Positions 56,175 through 64,000 of a DNA stretch of 64,000 nucleotides are shown one piece after another (position 1 is the stretch's first letter; each line of letters opens with the position of its first letter). Location of the stretch: contig JAHLWS010000077.1 of NCBI GenBank assembly GCA_019057795.1, forward strand, positions 134,766-198,765. The letters are read 5' to 3'. Below the pieces are notes generated by a model. It ran no database searches, was not told where the DNA came from, and was given only the letters and a program-made list of their open reading frames with translations. The stretch is from Promethearchaeota archaeon. GTDB taxonomy: Archaea > Asgardarchaeota > Lokiarchaeia > Sigyniarchaeales > SOKP01. Made by a program: the position numbers and the translations under genes.

Positions 56175-56522
56175 ATGTCGCAACAAACAATCTCAAGAAC
56201 TTTAAGTAAAGCGATTTTAAAGGATAAAGTTAGAATCAAATTAAAGATTTGGAACACTTATTTGACAGGGAAGCTAACCCAATTTGATGGCTACATGAAT
56301 TTAATAGTAGAGGACGCCAAAGAAATATATTTTGGTCGGGGTGGAAAAAGAAGCAAGAGTCTTGGGACCGTTATGATTAGAGGGGCTTCTATCGTTTTCA
56401 TTGGGCAGGATAGAAAGAAATTGATTTTTTCTAATAATGATACTGATTCTAAAGATGAGGATGCGGTTGAGGAAGATTTACACGATAAATTGATGCATAG
56501 AAAGGAAGCAGAAGATAGCTAA
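56175..56522 (+). CDS. Sm-like archaeal protein (Lsm/SmAP1) with an acidic C-terminal tail
   Basis: Sm1 GKLTQFDGYMNLIVEDA and Sm2 GTVMIRGASI, in the conserved position upstream of rpl37e. Confidence 0.92.
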   Translation: MSQQTISRTLSKAILKDKVRIKLKIWNTYLTGKLTQFDGYMNLIVEDAKEIYFGRGGKRSKSLGTVMIRGASIVFIGQDRKKLIFSNNDTDSKDEDAVEEDLHDKLMHRKEAEDS

Positions 56523-56542
56523 AAAGAGAAGAGGTTGAAATA

Positions 56543-56743
56543 ATGGGTAAAGGAACTCCGAGCAAGGGTAAAAAAAATAAAGCAGCAAGTCATAAAACAT
56601 GTAGAAGATGCGGAAAACATAGTTACCATAGAAGAAAAAAGTTTTGTGCTTCTTGCGGATTTGGAAGAACAGCTAAGTTGAGACAACCAGCTTGGAGAAA
56701 CAGATATAGAGCTTTTAACAAAAATAAAGGCTTCTACGCTTAA
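56543..56743 (+). CDS. rpl37e: 50S ribosomal protein L37e
   Basis: MGKGTPS.GK and CRRCG..SYH....CASCGFG. Confidence 0.97.
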   Translation: MGKGTPSKGKKNKAASHKTCRRCGKHSYHRRKKFCASCGFGRTAKLRQPAWRNRYRAFNKNKGFYA

Positions 56744-56808
56744 ATTACCTTTTAGTTTTGTGCGTTAATCTCCTTTTTTTAAAGAACTTGTAGTTAGATT
56801 TTAAAATT

Positions 56809-58278
56809 TTATTTTGTTATAAAGAATTCTTGGATTAAACTACCGTTATCTCTTATTGCCTTAATGTGTAAATTATTTCCGTTTAATTCAAAATGCATAA
56901 AGTGATGAGTCAATTCTCCATAAATCTGATAATTGCGAGTAATATAATCGTTTTGATAAGCTTCAATGGATGCGTTATGCCACAATCTTTTCCAGGGATC
57001 TCGATTGCGATGCATAATAAATTCGTCGAGGTCTCCTCCACCACCAGTTACAAAAAAGTATGTACCTCCCCAGCTTTCAGTGCGATTAGTCCAAAAAGCT
57101 TCGTAATGATGGTCGTGTCCCGATAATACTACATCTACTTGATTTTCGTAAAAAATTGGGGCTAATTGGGTAGCTAACTTTTCATGCATGTTAAAATCCC
57201 CAGTACTATAAGGTGGTGCGTGAAGAACAACGAAAAGCCATTTGTCTTTATTTAGCGCTAAATCTTGCCTAAGCCACGCTTCTTGAGCTTCTAATAGAAA
57301 ACCACCCCAATCGAGTTGATTTTGAAAAACATCAATCATGACAAAATGAGCGTTTGAATAGTCAAAACTGTAGTAATGACCCCAATCCTCAACATAGCTA
57401 TAAGGAAAAAAATATTTGAAATTCCGAGCAAATATATCAACACCGTATTCATGGTTTCCAATTGCAACCATATATGGGCTAGTTGAAGCGTGTCTTTCCA
57501 TGTGATTAAAGAATACATGCCATCCGTCTAATTCTTCGCCTACATAAGGGCCAAGATCCCCAGCATGTATGATAAAATCGTATTGATACGGCGTCATTGC
57601 ATCTGTAACAGCCCCGTATTCGCTTGGGTCTAGACCTGCATGCGTGTCGCTTATTGCAGTAAAATTAAAAGGAGTTATAGCCGAAGGGGCGGTGGTAAAA
57701 TTGTAAATAACAGTTGAGAAATCGGTTATTTTATAATGGTATAATGTTCCAGCTTTTAAATTCCTAAGTTTTGCTACATGTCTTTTTTCTAAGACGGATA
57801 CTCGAAAGGTTTCCATATCTCCAATAGATTCGCCAAAATCTAATACCGATTCGGTAGGATTTTTCGTATGCCAGATAATTGTCATCGTTGTTTTTGGATC
57901 GTCGTTCCACAACAAGTAAGGTCCATCGTCATAATTGTATAATTGTGCATTAGGAAAAAAGTACAAAACGAATGCCAAAATAGAAAGAGACCAAACGAGG
58001 AATGTTATAAAGAAAGAAGCTATAAGATATTTCTTCGAAATTGTAAGCCTCTCTTGTATTTTAAAATTCTTTGCTAATTTAACGATAGATTTAATAAAGA
58101 AATATAGCGGAATTATTATTAGAAAAAGAATTGGTATAAAAGATAATAAAAACGTTAAAGGATTCCATATGATGTGGCTTTTTGTCAACCAGAAGATTAA
58201 GGTCCCCCAAATTATCAATAAAATGGAATTTAGTAGAAAAAATAAAAACCAAATTACATTTTTTTTCTTTAAATCCAT
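56809..58278 (-). CDS. Membrane-anchored purple acid phosphatase-like metallophosphoesterase (3 TM + FN3 + calcineurin-like domain)
   Basis: Three N-terminal TM segments, FN3 (MTIIW..LKAGTLYHY), and SDTH, HAGD, GNHE, HAPPY, SGHDHHY. Confidence 0.9.
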   Translation of the reverse strand: MDLKKKNVIWFLFFLLNSILLIIWGTLIFWLTKSHIIWNPLTFLLSFIPILFLIIIPLYFFIKSIVKLAKNFKIQERLTISKKYLIASFFITFLVWSLSILAFVLYFFPNAQLYNYDDGPYLLWNDDPKTTMTIIWHTKNPTESVLDFGESIGDMETFRVSVLEKRHVAKLRNLKAGTLYHYKITDFSTVIYNFTTAPSAITPFNFTAISDTHAGLDPSEYGAVTDAMTPYQYDFIIHAGDLGPYVGEELDGWHVFFNHMERHASTSPYMVAIGNHEYGVDIFARNFKYFFPYSYVEDWGHYYSFDYSNAHFVMIDVFQNQLDWGGFLLEAQEAWLRQDLALNKDKWLFVVLHAPPYSTGDFNMHEKLATQLAPIFYENQVDVVLSGHDHHYEAFWTNRTESWGGTYFFVTGGGGDLDEFIMHRNRDPWKRLWHNASIEAYQNDYITRNYQIYGELTHHFMHFELNGNNLHIKAIRDNGSLIQEFFITK

Positions 58279-58445
58279 GTTTTAAATTACATCTAGGTTT
58301 TGATTCATTATTGACTTGAACATATATTCAGTCTTTGAGTTATTAATAGTTATCATTAAAAATAAAGAGAGTGCGTAAATTAATAAATTTAAAAAGAATA
58401 ATTAAAAATAAAGAGAATTAAAAAATAAACAATCTCAATAAAAAG

Positions 58446-58817
58446 ATGGAATCTTTAAAAACTGAAAGCGTCAATAAGGAACTGGATAGATTAGAATTAG
58501 TAAATGGAATAATCGGTACCGCTATAGTAAATAGAAACGGTTTAACAATTATCTCCCGGTTGCCTAGATATGTTGAAGAGCGTAAATTTGGTGCGATGGC
58601 CGCAACCATGTTTGGAGCCATGGAAACAGCTATAACTACGCTACAAGATAAAATCGTTAATTTGACGGTAGAATTTAACGATTATCAATTAATTGTTTTT
58701 ATAATTAGTACTGAAATAATTTTTGCAGCAGTGCTTGAACTTGACATTGACTTAGGGTTACTGCTTATTGAAGTTGAGGAATGTGTTAAAATTATTAAAA
58801 ATATATTAGAGGTGTGA
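58446..58817 (+). CDS. Roadblock/LC7 (MglB-like) domain protein
   Basis: GIIGTAIVNRNGLTIISRLP, FGAMAATMFGA and DLGLLLIEV. Confidence 0.88.
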   Translation: MESLKTESVNKELDRLELVNGIIGTAIVNRNGLTIISRLPRYVEERKFGAMAATMFGAMETAITTLQDKIVNLTVEFNDYQLIVFIISTEIIFAAVLELDIDLGLLLIEVEECVKIIKNILEV

Positions 58818-59557
58818 AAAAAATTCTTACTGAAAGTCAAAAAAAGAGATATTCAAGGCAGATATTATCCCCTTCTATTGGAGAAGTTGGACAAGAAAAA
58901 TTGTCGAAAGTTAGAGTATTACAAATCGGTGCGGGAGGTTTAGGTTCTCCTTTTGCTCTTTATATTGTTGCTGCTGGAATAAAAGAATTGACTATCATTG
59001 ACAACGACACTTTATCAATTTCCAATCTTCAACGACAAATACTTTACAATGAAGCCCAAGTTGGAAAGGAGAAAGCGTATGCTGCAAAAGAGAGGTTATC
59101 TAATCTTAATTCTGAAGTAGAAATTAAAGTATTTAACGATTATTTAGATGAAAATTCTATTAAGAAGTATGTTAAAGACAAAGATTTTATCGTTGATTGT
59201 AGCGATAATTTTAAAACTAAATTTTTAGTCAACAAAATTGCAATAGAATATAACATTAAAGCCATAATTGCCGGAATTAAAGATTTTTTCGGGCAAATAA
59301 TTACGATAGACCCTAAAAAAACTGCTTGTTATGAATGTGTTTTCAATCAACCGGACACTCTTGATTCTTCAGAAGGTCCTTTACCAGTAATTGGCGTTAC
59401 TCCAGGCATTCTAGGCACTTTAGAGGCTTTGGAGGTAATTAAAACTACTTTAGGGCTACCTAATTTAGAAAATAAGCTCCTTATAGTTAATCTTTTAGAT
59501 TTAATGTTTAATACAATAGATATCGTCAAAAGCGAAAATTGCATGTGCTCAAAATAG
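58814..59557 (+). CDS. ThiF/MoeB/HesA family E1-like adenylyltransferase
   Basis: RYSRQI, GQEKL, IGAGGLGS, SNLQRQ, DCSDN and CYEC. GTGA overlap with the Roadblock stop. Confidence 0.92.
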   Translation: MKKILTESQKKRYSRQILSPSIGEVGQEKLSKVRVLQIGAGGLGSPFALYIVAAGIKELTIIDNDTLSISNLQRQILYNEAQVGKEKAYAAKERLSNLNSEVEIKVFNDYLDENSIKKYVKDKDFIVDCSDNFKTKFLVNKIAIEYNIKAIIAGIKDFFGQIITIDPKKTACYECVFNQPDTLDSSEGPLPVIGVTPGILGTLEALEVIKTTLGLPNLENKLLIVNLLDLMFNTIDIVKSENCMCSK

Positions 59558-59615
59558 GTTAAGAAAAAGAAAAAGAGAAGAGAAAAAAAATTAATTTTAA
59601 ATTTTAAATACGAGT

Positions 59616-60140
59616 CTAAAAACCTTTTTTAGTGATTATGAAGGCTACACCACCATAGAACAAACCATTAGCAATTCCGGCTATAATAACAACCAAAATG
59701 GTACCTAATTCACCGTAAATAGCTACTTTAGCAGCCCAAACATTCGCTATATTGGGAGAGAGCAATGGACCTATTCCTAAAAGTAAAGCATATCCTACAC
59801 AAGTTATTAAGGCAGTTAAGATCCAGGCTCTAAAAACTATTTTTTTACTATCTCCTAAGAATGAAGCGACGATTACTGTAACTAATGGAGGGACTATTAA
59901 ATTTAGAAATACCATAAAATCAATGAAAAATTCAGTAGAAGTAAATAATGGTAAGATCCCGTTTGTGGACCAGGCAGCTCCGGGGAAGGTAAAGATTGGC
60001 GCGAAAATCATGTTTGTAATTACCATAATATTTATATGGAAACCAGGGACTGTAAACATCGCAATTAGCGTAAAGACTGTATTCAATCCCGTATAGATCA
60101 CTAGAGAAATTATAAAAGTTTTTAATAAATTCAAATTCAT
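59616..60140 (-). CDS. Hypothetical multi-pass membrane protein
   Basis: 174 aa with about 4-5 hydrophobic segments. Confidence 0.7.
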   Translation of the reverse strand: MNLNLLKTFIISLVIYTGLNTVFTLIAMFTVPGFHINIMVITNMIFAPIFTFPGAAWSTNGILPLFTSTEFFIDFMVFLNLIVPPLVTVIVASFLGDSKKIVFRAWILTALITCVGYALLLGIGPLLSPNIANVWAAKVAIYGELGTILVVIIAGIANGLFYGGVAFIITKKGF

Positions 60141-60341
60141 TTAAATCAAGCTCATTTTTTTTAATTAAAGATTCCTATATATTAAATCTTAGTTCATTTA
60201 AGTATATAAATATTTTAGAGCTAGTCTATTTTCAATTAGAAAGAATATTAAAATAATGTAATATCAAGGTAGGATTAGACAACAAAAGAAAAATGATTAA
60301 AAGGAATTAAGTAAAAAGAAAAAGTTTTAGAGTTTAATATG

Positions 60342-60875
60342 TTAAGAATTCTTTTTAAAAAATTCTTTAAACAATTTGCCATTGTCGGCATAGACGCCAG
60401 CAGTTTTCATCCCCTCCAACTTGCCAGTTTGGGGTAGCTGTTTCTTAATTTTGGCGGGAACTCCAACAGCTAAAGTTCTAGGGGGAATTTCCTTTCCAAC
60501 TAAAACAGCTCCCGCGCCTACGATCGAGCCGTCCCCCATTTTAGATCGATGTAGTACATTAGCACCTATTCCAACCAGACAACCTTTCCCAATTGTGCAA
60601 GGACCATGCACCATAGCGTGATGTCCGACTATACAGTTATCGCCGATTTCTACAGTGGATCCTACTTCGTTGTGAATAGTAACATTTTCCTGTATACTTG
60701 TATTTTTTCCAATAATAATTGTACCCCAATCTCCGCGGAGGACTGCTCCAAACCAGATATTACTTCCTTCACCAATCGTAACATCTCCAATAATGACTGC
60801 AGTTGGTGCTATGAATACTGATTCGTGAATTTGGGGTTCTTTTCCCGTTCTAGGGCTTGGTATAATTAATGGCAT
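60342..60875 (-). CDS. Gamma carbonic anhydrase-family (YrdA/CaiE-like) hexapeptide-repeat protein
   Basis: IAPTAVIIGDV, IWFGAVLRGD, IQENVTIH, VGHHAMVHG (three metal-binding His) and GVPAK. Confidence 0.93.
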   Translation of the reverse strand: MPLIIPSPRTGKEPQIHESVFIAPTAVIIGDVTIGEGSNIWFGAVLRGDWGTIIIGKNTSIQENVTIHNEVGSTVEIGDNCIVGHHAMVHGPCTIGKGCLVGIGANVLHRSKMGDGSIVGAGAVLVGKEIPPRTLAVGVPAKIKKQLPQTGKLEGMKTAGVYADNGKLFKEFFKKNS

Positions 60876-60973: not shown

Positions 60974-61948
60974 TTATTTTAAGAGCTTTGCGTCTTCAAG
61001 AATTTTTTTATGATCGAAAGCTAAATCGATATCTTTCAATTTTTCTTTGGGTATTATCTCAACTTTCTTAGAGTCGTCTCCGCTTCTCAATTCGGAGATA
61101 TCGCCAATAATAGTACATTTGTAAGCTATTGAATGAATGTTCCCTCTTGGGTCCCTTCCTTTTTCAGTATAAATACCAATTTTATATTTAATCTCTACTT
61201 TTAGATTAGTTTCTTCCTTAACTTCCCTGACCAAGGCGTTGATTGGTTTTTCTCCTTTTTCGATAAATCCACCAGGGAGTGCATAAAAATTCTTGAACGG
61301 CGGATATTTTCTCTTAATTAAGATAACATTTCCTTCTCGATCCTCGATTACAGCGTCAACAGTTTTCCCAACTTCTGATTTTTCCGTTTGTAATCTTATA
61401 TACAAATAATAGCTAATTGTAACAATTAAGATCCCTATTATAATCGCAGCGATGGATCCATTTAACACGGAAGTAATAAAATTCCCTTCTTGTAGATTTA
61501 ACCATATCATTACAACTCCAGCTAGGTCAGCTAAAATTCCCGCCCCAAAAAGTAGGTTTAATAAATTAAGACCTCTCTCAGTTCTTTCTTGATTTTCTTC
61601 GCTTTTTTTACGGTGTAAATCTTCCATTACATCGTATATTGAATTAAATTTTACATTTATGCGATTAACAATATTAGTTACTTCAAATTCATTTAATAGA
61701 TGTTTCAGCACGCTGGTATAGTGTTGTCTTCTATTATAATCTAATTCGTTATATATTGCGCTTAAGGTCGTTTGAATCATACCCCTTTGTGTCCTTAAAT
61801 TCCTAATTTTTTTCTGTATTGTGTTTATATCTTGAAACGCTTGCGTTTGCGTTTTTAAAAACAGTAAATCTAGCGATTCATTTATCGAACGCAGCGAAAA
61901 TAATACTGCTCTCATTTTTGGAGTAGGATCAAGTACAAATTCTTTCAT
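60974..61948 (-). CDS. C-terminal part of a CorA-like stalk + 2TM + Nudix (ADP-ribose pyrophosphatase-type) fusion
   Basis: Long amphipathic helices, two TM segments (aa ~127-150 and ~158-184), Nudix box GGFIEKGEKPINALVREVKEETNL, RDPRG and LAFDH. In frame with the upstream ORF. Confidence 0.85.
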   Translation of the reverse strand: MKEFVLDPTPKMRAVLFSLRSINESLDLLFLKTQTQAFQDINTIQKKIRNLRTQRGMIQTTLSAIYNELDYNRRQHYTSVLKHLLNEFEVTNIVNRINVKFNSIYDVMEDLHRKKSEENQERTERGLNLLNLLFGAGILADLAGVVMIWLNLQEGNFITSVLNGSIAAIIIGILIVTISYYLYIRLQTEKSEVGKTVDAVIEDREGNVILIKRKYPPFKNFYALPGGFIEKGEKPINALVREVKEETNLKVEIKYKIGIYTEKGRDPRGNIHSIAYKCTIIGDISELRSGDDSKKVEIIPKEKLKDIDLAFDHKKILEDAKLLK

Positions 61949-61954
61949 ATAGGA

Positions 61955-62665
61955 TTAAAAGAATTTTTCGTAATTTTCTTCAGCCATATAAACAAATCCA
62001 GAGTTCCTTCGTATAAAATGTAGTTCTGAGAGCCTGTTAGATAAATTATTTTGGATTCGTTTGTTAAATAAAGTATCCGAATAATCATCCCACTGCCCCG
62101 AATATATTTCTGTCCAATACCCTATTACCTTCTTATATTTTTCAATATTTTCTGGATTCCAAATTATATCGCTGGGTTTAATTTTATTGGAAGTTAGAAA
62201 GATATAAATAGGGCTTTCTGTATCAAAATATAATCCCGTGTTTTCAACTTTATTAATAAAACCTTTTAAGGTTTTTAAAAGAATAAATGGTACTTGTTGA
62301 ATTAGCATCGGCTTTATGGATTCTTTTTTAGAAGGATTATCTTTATAATATTCTACTTCAAATTGGAAATATCCTAATGTATTATAGTCTCTTTCAGAAT
62401 TTTCGTCCTTATAGGGAAAATTAGATAAGCACGTGACCCAACTACATTTAATAGAAATATTCCTAATTAATTCAAATAAATCTTCTTTAAGTTCTTTTTT
62501 GTATATATCCTCGTCCTTTAAGTTTTGGAATTTATTTTTAATAAGATTCTCAATTTCTTTACTTTTTAATTCAGTATTAATTTTAGCAGTATTAACGAAC
62601 GCACTAATGAACCAAAACTCTTCTTTATAGATAAATTGCAGAATTTCACTCATAATCTCCAACAT
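61955..62665 (-). CDS. N-terminal part of the same CorA-like/Nudix gene, separated by an in-frame TAA
   Basis: Reads EKFF-TAA-SY-MKEF in one frame into the downstream ORF. Confidence 0.7.
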   Translation of the reverse strand: MLEIMSEILQFIYKEEFWFISAFVNTAKINTELKSKEIENLIKNKFQNLKDEDIYKKELKEDLFELIRNISIKCSWVTCLSNFPYKDENSERDYNTLGYFQFEVEYYKDNPSKKESIKPMLIQQVPFILLKTLKGFINKVENTGLYFDTESPIYIFLTSNKIKPSDIIWNPENIEKYKKVIGYWTEIYSGQWDDYSDTLFNKRIQNNLSNRLSELHFIRRNSGFVYMAEENYEKFF

Positions 62666-62791
62666 TAAAAATATTATAAATTCAATTAAATTATATTAAA
62701 TATTTCAATTTTTATTAGGTAAAAAAATTACTTTAAAATACCAGAAAATAGATTAATTCCTAAATCTTGTGTATATATAAATAATTTTTTC

Positions 62792-64000
62792 TTAATTAAT
62801 AAAATTGCGCACTTCGCATCCAAGCTGTAATTGCAAGCGATTTACAATGTGAGCGAGACCTTGTCGATTCAAACTTGCTTTAAATGGCGCTTTCACGCGT
62901 TTATTGAGCCATTCCAGGTTTGCCCGGCAGGCTTTCCCTAATTCTGGATGTTCGAGAAAGACTCTTGCAAATGCTATTATTTCCGATTTATATTTTTTGA
63001 GAGTCGTTATGGCAGTGTTTAATTTGTCAGAGTAGTTCTTTTTTTGAGTTAAGGCGTCTATTTGCCGACCATCTACAAGATTATAGGACTCCCGATAAAT
63101 CTCTCCGATCATGAGCGTCATTTCTCGATATTTCCTGAGAGTTGGATGTTGCTTTAAAAACTCTTCTATAAGTGTTTCTGCTTTAGGAATCACCTTTTCT
63201 GGTTGTTTAAAAAGAAGAAATTGCTTTTTACTGAATTCTCGTGCCTCTTCTTTTAGCGGTTTTCTAAATTTTAGACAGAGCGTTTTCAATTTTTTTAGAA
63301 GTTCTCCTTGAACACGGTTGCGTCCTTTAATCGTAAACTTCCTTTTTGGAAACTTCGAGCGCAACGTATCGCAAAATTCCTTTAAGATTTCGCCGTATTC
63401 TTTTAAAAGCTTTTTAAGCTCCACGTCAAAAGCAATAAAAAAAGAGCGAGGATCTTGTGTGGTTAAAAGGAAAAGGAGCTGTTTTATGACTTCGTTACAC
63501 TTTTTTGCGCCTGAATGGGAAGGGTTAATCTTTTTTAAAGGAGGAATGCTATCAGAAGTGAGGAGGTCGGCGTGTTTACGCTTCTCTTGGAGAACATTAA
63601 GGTAAGTACGAAGCCCTAATAATTCGTTTATTTCATCGCGATAAAGCTTAGCCCTGTAATATTTGAAATCTCGTCTTATTCCGTTATTTAGTGTTTGCAT
63701 CACGTGAAAGCCGTCGATTTGAACGGCAGATTCTGGAAAAATCGCTTTGATTGCGGCGATTAATGCGGGACTAAAATCGCACGTGATAATATAAGGGTTA
63801 ATGGGTGCTTTTTTTCTTACAGCAAGTAAAGAACGACAGCCATTCTCAAAGTCTTCTATTCCCACCAGGTCAATAAGTATATTCCGTTTGATAACTTGAC
63901 TGCCGATGCTAAGGGCACATTTTTTTTTTTTCCTAACAGTTTATTTCCTAAACTAAAACCCGTTCCATCGATTGTGAGTGCTTTATACGCTTCTAATGCC
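62792..64000 (-). mobile_element. ISL3-like insertion sequence transposase, truncated by the window edge, in two frames joined at an A12 run
   Basis: ITCDFSPALIAAIKAIFP.SAVQIDGFHVMQ (ISL3-type D..D.FH), LEWLNKRVK, and LTIDGT in the upstream frame. GC is higher than the flanks. Termini not identified. Confidence 0.8.

Follow-up and report, generated by a model that had tools for sequence, protein, structure and literature searches.

A CorA-like membrane module fused to an ADP-ribose-type Nudix domain in Lokiarchaeia: a putative nucleotide-gated pore that may remove its own ligand

Do two adjacent ORFs of a Lokiarchaeia genome encode a single protein, and could this protein be a channel joined to an enzyme that destroys its signal? 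The question was raised by a preliminary description of the window, that is, the whole stretch of 64,000 nucleotides analysed here (assembly GCA_019057795.1, contig JAHLWS010000077.1, referred to as C77), in which the two ORFs were read through one stop codon. As shown in Table 1, the minus strand can be read from position 62665 to 60974 as 563 codons, interrupted only by an in-frame TAA at codon 237. ORF calling splits the gene into a 236-aa ORF and a 324-aa ORF, the second of which starts at Met240, 6 nt past the TAA. The relatives bore out the reading as one gene. A homolog search returned 540 proteins at E<=1e-3, and the best 120 of them are nearly all 555-568 aa in length with both parts; orthologs fusing the two parts thus exist, and the close relatives are free of the stop. 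An intact homolog, P0002, shares 94% identity with the window's fusion protein, and the codons of the closest relatives at position 237 are one base from TAA.

Table 1. Features of the fusion gene and its flanks in the window (positions of the window; aa, residues of the fusion protein)
Feature	Position	Strand	Remark
Whole CorA-like/Nudix fusion gene	60974..62665	-	563 codons + stop, one nonsense codon within
Premature TAA, codon 237	61955..61957	-	AAA or GAA in closest relatives
Cytoplasmic alpha/beta head domain, aa 1-236	61958..62665	-	now a separate 236-aa ORF; model pLDDT about 90
Most conserved family segment, about aa 184-222	62000..62116	-	in head; mean conservation 0.71 vs 0.43-0.46 elsewhere
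Helical hairpins and long stalk helix into TM1, aa 240-366	61568..61948	-	H247-272, H280-310, H329-388 in model
TM1, about aa 367-389	61499..61567	-	conserved intramembrane N370, G374, D/E380; no GMN
TM2, aa 396-423	61397..61480	-	poorly conserved; basic stretch after
Nudix domain, NadM/NrtR (ADP-ribose) clade, aa 431-563	60977..61375	-	box at 61202-61270
Gamma-carbonic-anhydrase-like hexapeptide gene	60342..60875	-	conserved downstream neighbour, 40/61 clade A loci
8-bp target-site duplication	62743..62750	+	identical 8-mer flanks other IS end, contig C74
ISL3-like element (about 1.8 kb; its other part is on contig C74)	62751..64000	-	in roughly 100-bp divergent spacer between fusion gene and nadA

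The stop at codon 237 is unique to the window's copy when the full-length matches from 60 related genomes are compared. The TAA recurs, with the same IS end, in a Logan contig, an independent assembly that may derive from the same sample or reads. An assembly error was rejected because the second assembly shares the TAA, with the reservation that the reads are possibly the same. An alternative genetic code was rejected because neighbouring genes end in TAA and the relatives carry sense codons. Comparison with three relatives gave a dN/dS of 0.13-0.20, and the changes private to the window's gene are 16 synonymous against 7 non-synonymous. Thus, selection operated until recently, and a long-standing pseudogene was rejected on the same figures. 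Judging from these alignments, the stop is a recent, strain-specific lesion, and it is quite probable that the window's copy has recently been inactivated as a full-length protein. Since the TAA falls in the helix connecting the head to the stalk and Met240 lies just 6 nt on, a headless membrane-anchored Nudix protein could still be made. Such a split product, arising by restart at Met240, has a small chance of being real, and readthrough of the TAA is highly improbable. In another close strain, the fusion is seemingly split elsewhere, into 305 and 268 aa, on contigs of equal size.

What is the C-terminal part? Pfam finds NUDIX at residues 434-558 (E 1.4e-17), which is the sole match on the whole protein, and databases label the fusion protein as a Nudix hydrolase only. 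All the motifs named in the preliminary description were found: the Nudix box (G466-E485, with Asn487 in place of the usual Gly), RDPRG (504-508), and LAFDH (548-552). The catalytic signature residues G466, E472, R480, E481, E484, and E485 are present; of the 210 full-length homologs, 200 keep the whole signature and 206 have RDxRG and LAFDH-type motifs. The best solved relatives are Aquifex 2yyh (the top match, labelled as an 8-oxo-dGTPase domain), NrtR proteins, and NadM, while NUDT9 is absent among the solved Nudix matches listed. The NrtR structure with ADP-ribose (ADPR), 3gz8, aligns with Z 19.7 and an rmsd of 1.9. ADPR contacts were mapped by alignment to Shewanella NrtR using the contact list of PMC4666351, which includes R41 and R98. 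These two correspond to the invariant R452 and R507, phosphate and ribose contacts were mapped, and the ribose contacts of NrtR/AraR fall on R504 and H552; all four residues are invariant or nearly so. The position of NrtR N43 is Tyr. The earlier assignment to the ADPR-type Nudix clade was thus upheld, and the conserved residues make ADPR hydrolysis by this domain likely. AraR of the same Nudix clade binds arabinose (PMC4666351), so that the clade is able to change its ligand.

The N-terminal part has no solved relative detectable by sequence profile, and the fusion protein does not reach the Pfam cut-off for CorA (PF01544). An alignment-based model of residues 1-430 of P0002 (pLDDT 90.6, pTM 0.82) begins with an alpha/beta head and two hairpin helices; next comes a helix of 60 residues that extends through TM1, followed by TM2. 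In structure searches, the full-length model returned Nudix matches only. With the Nudix domain removed, T. maritima CorA ranked first in Foldseek (E 4e-3, probability 0.90), at TM-scores of just 0.2-0.3. After realignment, 13 CorA entries were at the top (Z 7.6-8.6, 210-245 residues across about 11-425, rmsd 5.8-8.2 A), and ZntB, Mrs2, and CmaX ranked below them. In an unbiased search, spectrin-like bundles tie with CorA; the only row in which most of the model is aligned end-to-end is that of M. jannaschii CorA (Z 7.5, 234 aligned, residues 12-421). No CRISPR-CorA structure is among the structure-search matches. Clusters named "CorA-like protein" in the Atlas reach a TM-score of 0.62; the Atlas also rates the MJ0711_N family as similar in shape, although the profile comparison of an MJ0711_N protein with the present family was negative. 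The head, stalk, and two-TM architecture proposed earlier thus survived the Foldseek comparison with CorA and ZntB as a weak match, and the model indicates that the N-terminal 430 residues have a far-diverged CorA-like fold. This part shares with CorA, ZntB, and Mrs2 (the 2-TM-GxN proteins) the alpha/beta head, the helical hairpins, the long stalk continuous with TM1, and the short TM2, but its TM1 does not end in GxN, its head is larger, and it carries the fused Nudix. According to the Atlas, similar CorA-like modules are joined to unrelated enzymes (amylase, GNAT, GGACT); thus, the fusion need not imply gating.

Could this membrane module form a pore? Its sequence has two hydrophobic stretches, at about 371-389 and 396-423. 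The absence of the GMN filter, noted before, was confirmed at the outer end of TM1, which is variable. A GLN at residues 365-367 (GMN in some homologs) was rejected as a CorA filter because it lies at the cytoplasmic start, the wrong end, of TM1. Inside the membrane, N370 and D/E380 are both polar in 98% of 66 diverse homologs, and D/E380 is acidic in 76%; the conservation moment of TM1 was non-significant (p 0.19). The charge bias across the TMs (-1.3 in the loop and +2.8 after TM2) agrees with the predicted topology, in which the Nudix domain is cytoplasmic and on the same side as the head. A four-copy complex prediction for the stalk and TMs (aa 229-430) scored 0.17, a "no answer" that counts neither way. 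The most conserved segment lies in the head (W184, Y188, S189, G190, D194, Y195, R203, L208, S209, R211, E214, H216, and S222). It is conserved in Nudix-bearing and Nudix-less relatives alike and is a candidate ligand or subunit-interface site.

Intact fusions of 556-600 aa are common in Lokiarchaeia, and the named homologs are mostly from Promethearchaeota/Lokiarchaeota, with Loki_b31 (92%) among the closest. The N-terminal module is present in 129 of 400 Asgard genomes, including 38 of the 41 genomes of the genus and 88 of the 134 genomes of the family, mostly as a single copy. In a tree of the CorA-like part alone (midpoint root, quick search), all Nudix-fused copies group together (SH-aLRT 99), separate from two Nudix-less Asgard groups. 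The tree indicates a probable single origin of the fusion, within Lokiarchaeia. Many homologs from other Asgard lineages have no Nudix domain, and most of these also have no NAD-related neighbours. Thus, the membrane module can do without the Nudix domain, and its head may answer to another signal. Among the outlying records, P0180 (Logan SRR30952584) is a divergent, compositionally odd 556-aa Nudix-less homolog next to a gene for the complex I 30-kDa subunit and is perhaps eukaryotic. In three cases (L049, L106, and L117), the contig with the Asgard gene belongs to a MAG assigned to Nanopelagicaceae, Deferrimicrobium, or Woesearchaeota; these assignments look like errors of labelling or binning.

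A whole-library profile search yielded 116 representatives, including a small bacterial clade and, at the margin, a CRISPR CorA. The latter, P0236, is the weakest profile match (E 6.6e-4); it matches the PADLOC CorA with E 5.5e-52, and its gene adjoins csx3 and cas10. Its hhalign comparison with the family gave a probability of 93.5 over 313-391 (79 columns, stalk/TM1 only). The window's fusion protein itself has no direct PADLOC CorA match, and no cas genes were recognised among the annotated recurring neighbours of fusion homologs. The bacterial homologs match the family with an hhalign probability of 98.6, seemingly have just one hydrophobic segment, and, in two of four checked cases, are encoded immediately after a SAVED gene. 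These two-gene units (L125:609-2494 and L128:564-2335) consist of a stand-alone SAVED gene followed by the CorA-like homolog, L125 also carrying a convergent MJ0711_N gene. No cyclase was found in their available flanks, and they are possibly an undescribed signalling module. The window's genome has two Cas10 genes of type III CRISPR (C29:7235-7639 and C83:8112-8588), which are unlinked to the fusion.

Which genes accompany the fusion? The clade of the window's ortholog is called clade A here, and its paralog clade is called clade B. In clade A, nadA is directly adjacent in 32 of the 57 loci with upstream DNA, almost always head-to-head; for the most part, this arrangement is a single synteny inherited within one family. 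The window's region 56175-60875 is conserved, with genes for Sm-like, L37e-like ribosomal, metallophosphoesterase, roadblock, ThiF, 174-aa membrane, and gamma-CA-like proteins. None of 61 clade A loci has a TIR neighbour. In clade B, a TIR gene is adjacent in 9 of 17 loci, in varied orientations and architectures (WD40-TIR and others); by alignment these TIRs fall into three subtypes, all with the catalytic Glu. A gene of a third clade, in genome G042, has a TIR gene on each side. Genomes with TIR-adjacent copies have 2-8 TIR genes, and I estimate the chance of TIR adjacency at ~0.2% per locus for about 4,000 genes; once kinship among the TIR-adjacent loci is allowed for, about four independent associations are left. 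Some clade B genes fill the same gamma-CA to nadA interval, and one locus (L109) has TIR, fusion, TIR, and nadA together. Thus, the search for NAD-related neighbours gave a positive answer in both clades.

Several other arrangements were noted. In two loci (L035:5902-9467 and L050:5659-9175), a clade A and a clade B paralog occur tail-to-tail between WD40-TIR and nadA. The Lokiarchaeia WD40-TIR proteins (L035:2246-5827, L109:3519-7781, and L113:6062-7615) are 500-1,400 aa long, have the catalytic Glu, and belong to several subtypes. In the complete genome G050, a 940-aa SIR2-like (ThsA-like) gene is directly downstream of a Nudix-less homolog (L022:7757-10576). P-type ATPase genes flank two fusion copies (L028:3565-12132, on both sides, and L026:8170-10167).

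The whole fusion was also found in two red-algal (Porphyridiophyceae-like) records, P0139 (an MMETSP transcript) and P0238 (JGI contig L041), which are about 36% identical to the nearest Asgard proteins. In this copy (L041:175-3045, JGI 3300016809), the Nudix box is decayed while the ligand motifs are kept. Its neighbours, Pho88 and CYP97B, have similar GC, and the best matches of the CYP97B are from Timspurckia, Porphyridium, and Erythrolobus (69-70%). The algal copy nests inside the fused Lokiarchaeia clade. Vertical inheritance was rejected for this single record nested among Lokiarchaeia copies; since no other eukaryote is among the best 120 matches, lateral transfer to one porphyridiophycean alga, possibly from an archaeon, is likelier. 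The two records represent one source, which may be a chimeric transcript assembly.

The reading that I prefer, with a probability of about 0.45, is a putative nucleotide-gated CorA-like pore whose Nudix domain removes an ADPR-type ligand, convergent with TRPM2 and not homologous to it. Subunit assembly would follow CorA, through the stalk and TM1, and N370 and D/E380 would point into a cation pore. ADPR or a close NAD breakdown product, supplied by TIR or sirtuin NADases or by ordinary NAD turnover, would bind the head segment 184-222 and/or the Nudix domain and open the pore. The Nudix domain would then split the ligand into AMP and ribose-5-phosphate, which would close the pore and supply NAD salvage. 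Precedents for a pore with a signal-degrading enzyme are known (PMC10600005; 10.1101/2023.03.16.533055). The weak CorA match, the missing GMN, the Nudix-less homologs, and the ligand switching in the Nudix clade count against this reading. So do the non-significant conservation moment of TM1, the single-family origin of most nadA adjacency, the lack of TIR neighbours in the window's clade, the 8-oxo-dGTPase label of 2yyh, and the joining of similar modules to unrelated enzymes. The window's clade looks like a housekeeping NAD/ADPR sensor, while a role as effector in signalling or defence is likelier for the TIR-linked paralog. The antiviral role suggested earlier found no support for the window's ortholog: with no TIR at 61 loci, mostly single copies, retention in 38 of the 41 genomes of the genus, and a stable housekeeping neighbourhood, NAD physiology fits better. 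It is doubtful whether the whole picture can be drawn further, to an ADPR-gated, self-terminating cation channel on a CorA scaffold in Lokiarchaeia, fed by the cell's own TIR NADases, with one copy in a red alga whose Nudix is a non-catalytic sensor. If the TIR-fed channel is true, it would constitute a prokaryotic pathway from TIR through ADPR to ion flux, parallel to animal TRPM2 and plant TIR signalling.

Is coupling between the two parts needed? It is rather unlikely, given the CRISPR-CorA link and the recurrence of TIR and SAVED genes nearby, all of which indicate nucleotide signalling, that the protein is an uncoupled fusion of a divergent metal-gated divalent-cation channel with an independent ADPR pyrophosphatase for NAD salvage. 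Nudix-less forms and the single origin of the fusion would suit such a protein, as would its mostly single-copy, highly retained distribution, the P-type ATPases beside two copies, and the lack of a canonical CorA in the window's genome and in G028; the Nudix domain alone would account for the nadA linkage. On the other hand, GMN is missing, canonical CorA and the fusion coexist in G034, and the Nudix box has decayed in a few copies, such as P0139, whose ligand motifs are intact, a pattern that a sensor would show. An activator other than ADPR is a weaker candidate. A TIR-made cyclic ADPR isomer, a cyclic oligonucleotide, or another dinucleotide would bind the head, and the pore would act as a depolarising defence effector like CRISPR CorA. 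The SAVED-linked bacterial relatives, the relative at a CRISPR locus, the TIR-adjacent paralogs, the polar head segment conserved independently of Nudix, and the two Cas10 genes elsewhere in the genome all speak for it, but the window's clade resides in a stable housekeeping region without defence genes, the fusion protein has no PADLOC CorA match, and the Nudix domain keeps ADPR-specific contacts. Less probable again is a poreless scaffold tethering an ADPR or NAD-cap hydrolase to the membrane, for although the filter motif has disappeared, the structures match weakly, and the bacterial relatives apparently have one hydrophobic segment, the buried polar/acidic TM1 residues are 98% polar in 66 diverse homologs, and a conserved 430-aa module that persists without the enzyme is too large for an anchor.

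How does the proposed nucleotide-gated pore compare with known systems? TRPM2 is a six-TM tetrameric TRP channel with NUDT9-H. The TRPM2 chanzyme of choanoflagellates and invertebrates (10.1101/2023.03.16.533055, PMC6461439) resembles the fusion in having a C-terminal cytoplasmic ADPR-hydrolysing Nudix on a channel, where both channel and hydrolysis are predictions for the fusion, and catalytically decayed versions exist in both. In contrast, the fusion has a CorA-like body with two TM segments only, not a six-TM TRP pore domain, and a Nudix of the NadM/NrtR clade. The preliminary description as TRPM2-like therefore stands for the combination of a channel-shaped part with an ADPR-type Nudix, as an analogy, and fails as homology. 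With NadM-Nudix and NrtR (PMC2330246), the fusion shares the Nudix clade, the ADPR-contact residues, and the association with NAD biosynthesis genes, while its output module is a membrane protein instead of an adenylyltransferase or a DNA-binding domain. The CorA of type III CRISPR (B. fragilis; PMC10600005, PMC11229360) likewise has a divergent CorA-like stalk, C-terminal TM helices, and a large head, and it is paired, sometimes fused, with a signal-destroying enzyme, namely an NrN/DEDD phosphodiesterase or a SAM-AMP lyase (PMC10600005, PMC11229360). The likeness to the fusion is a CorA-like protein with an enzyme that destroys, or is predicted to destroy, a nucleotide signal, and a weak sequence link in the stalk/TM1. 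The fusion differs in having no cas10 locus and no PADLOC CorA match; its enzyme is a C-terminal Nudix pyrophosphatase, pointing to ADPR and not to SAM-AMP, and NrN, DEDD, or SAM-AMP lyase is neither adjacent nor fused. Moreover, its clade has seemingly been kept vertically in Lokiarchaeia.

The literature searched contains no description of CorA, Nudix, and Asgard together, and the joining of a channel-shaped membrane part to a probable ADPR hydrolase in many Asgard archaea suggests an undescribed self-resetting nucleotide-gated pore. If the gating is true, this would be a second, independent origin of an ADPR-gated channel-enzyme, in archaea related to the eukaryote ancestor; to my knowledge, none was known earlier from a prokaryote. 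It would also extend divergent CorA effectors beyond CRISPR and provide a candidate downstream output for Asgard TIR proteins. Moreover, a compact one-gene model would become available for the regulation of CorA pores by signal-degrading enzymes, a question left open for B. fragilis CorA/NrN (PMC10600005).

In the window's genome, nadA is the head-to-head neighbour of the fusion gene and is separated from it by the ISL3-like insertion, which lies 85 bp from the start codon of the fusion gene and 21 bp from that of nadA. Contig C74 carries nadA at its end and shares a 99-bp overlap with the end of the window (C77), within the element. A loss of the nadA linkage was thus rejected in favour of an IS insertion with a contig break. 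The element probably cuts nadA off from its promoter; a sigma-70 promoter scan was uninformative for the archaeal host. Copies or fragments of the element are also found on C21, C58, C20, C52, and the start of C77. In the window, a run of ~12 A on the minus strand (about 63920-63931) joins two transposase frames. The C21 copy, too, has such an A run and is likewise not one long frame, and both observations are in keeping with programmed -1 frameshifting.
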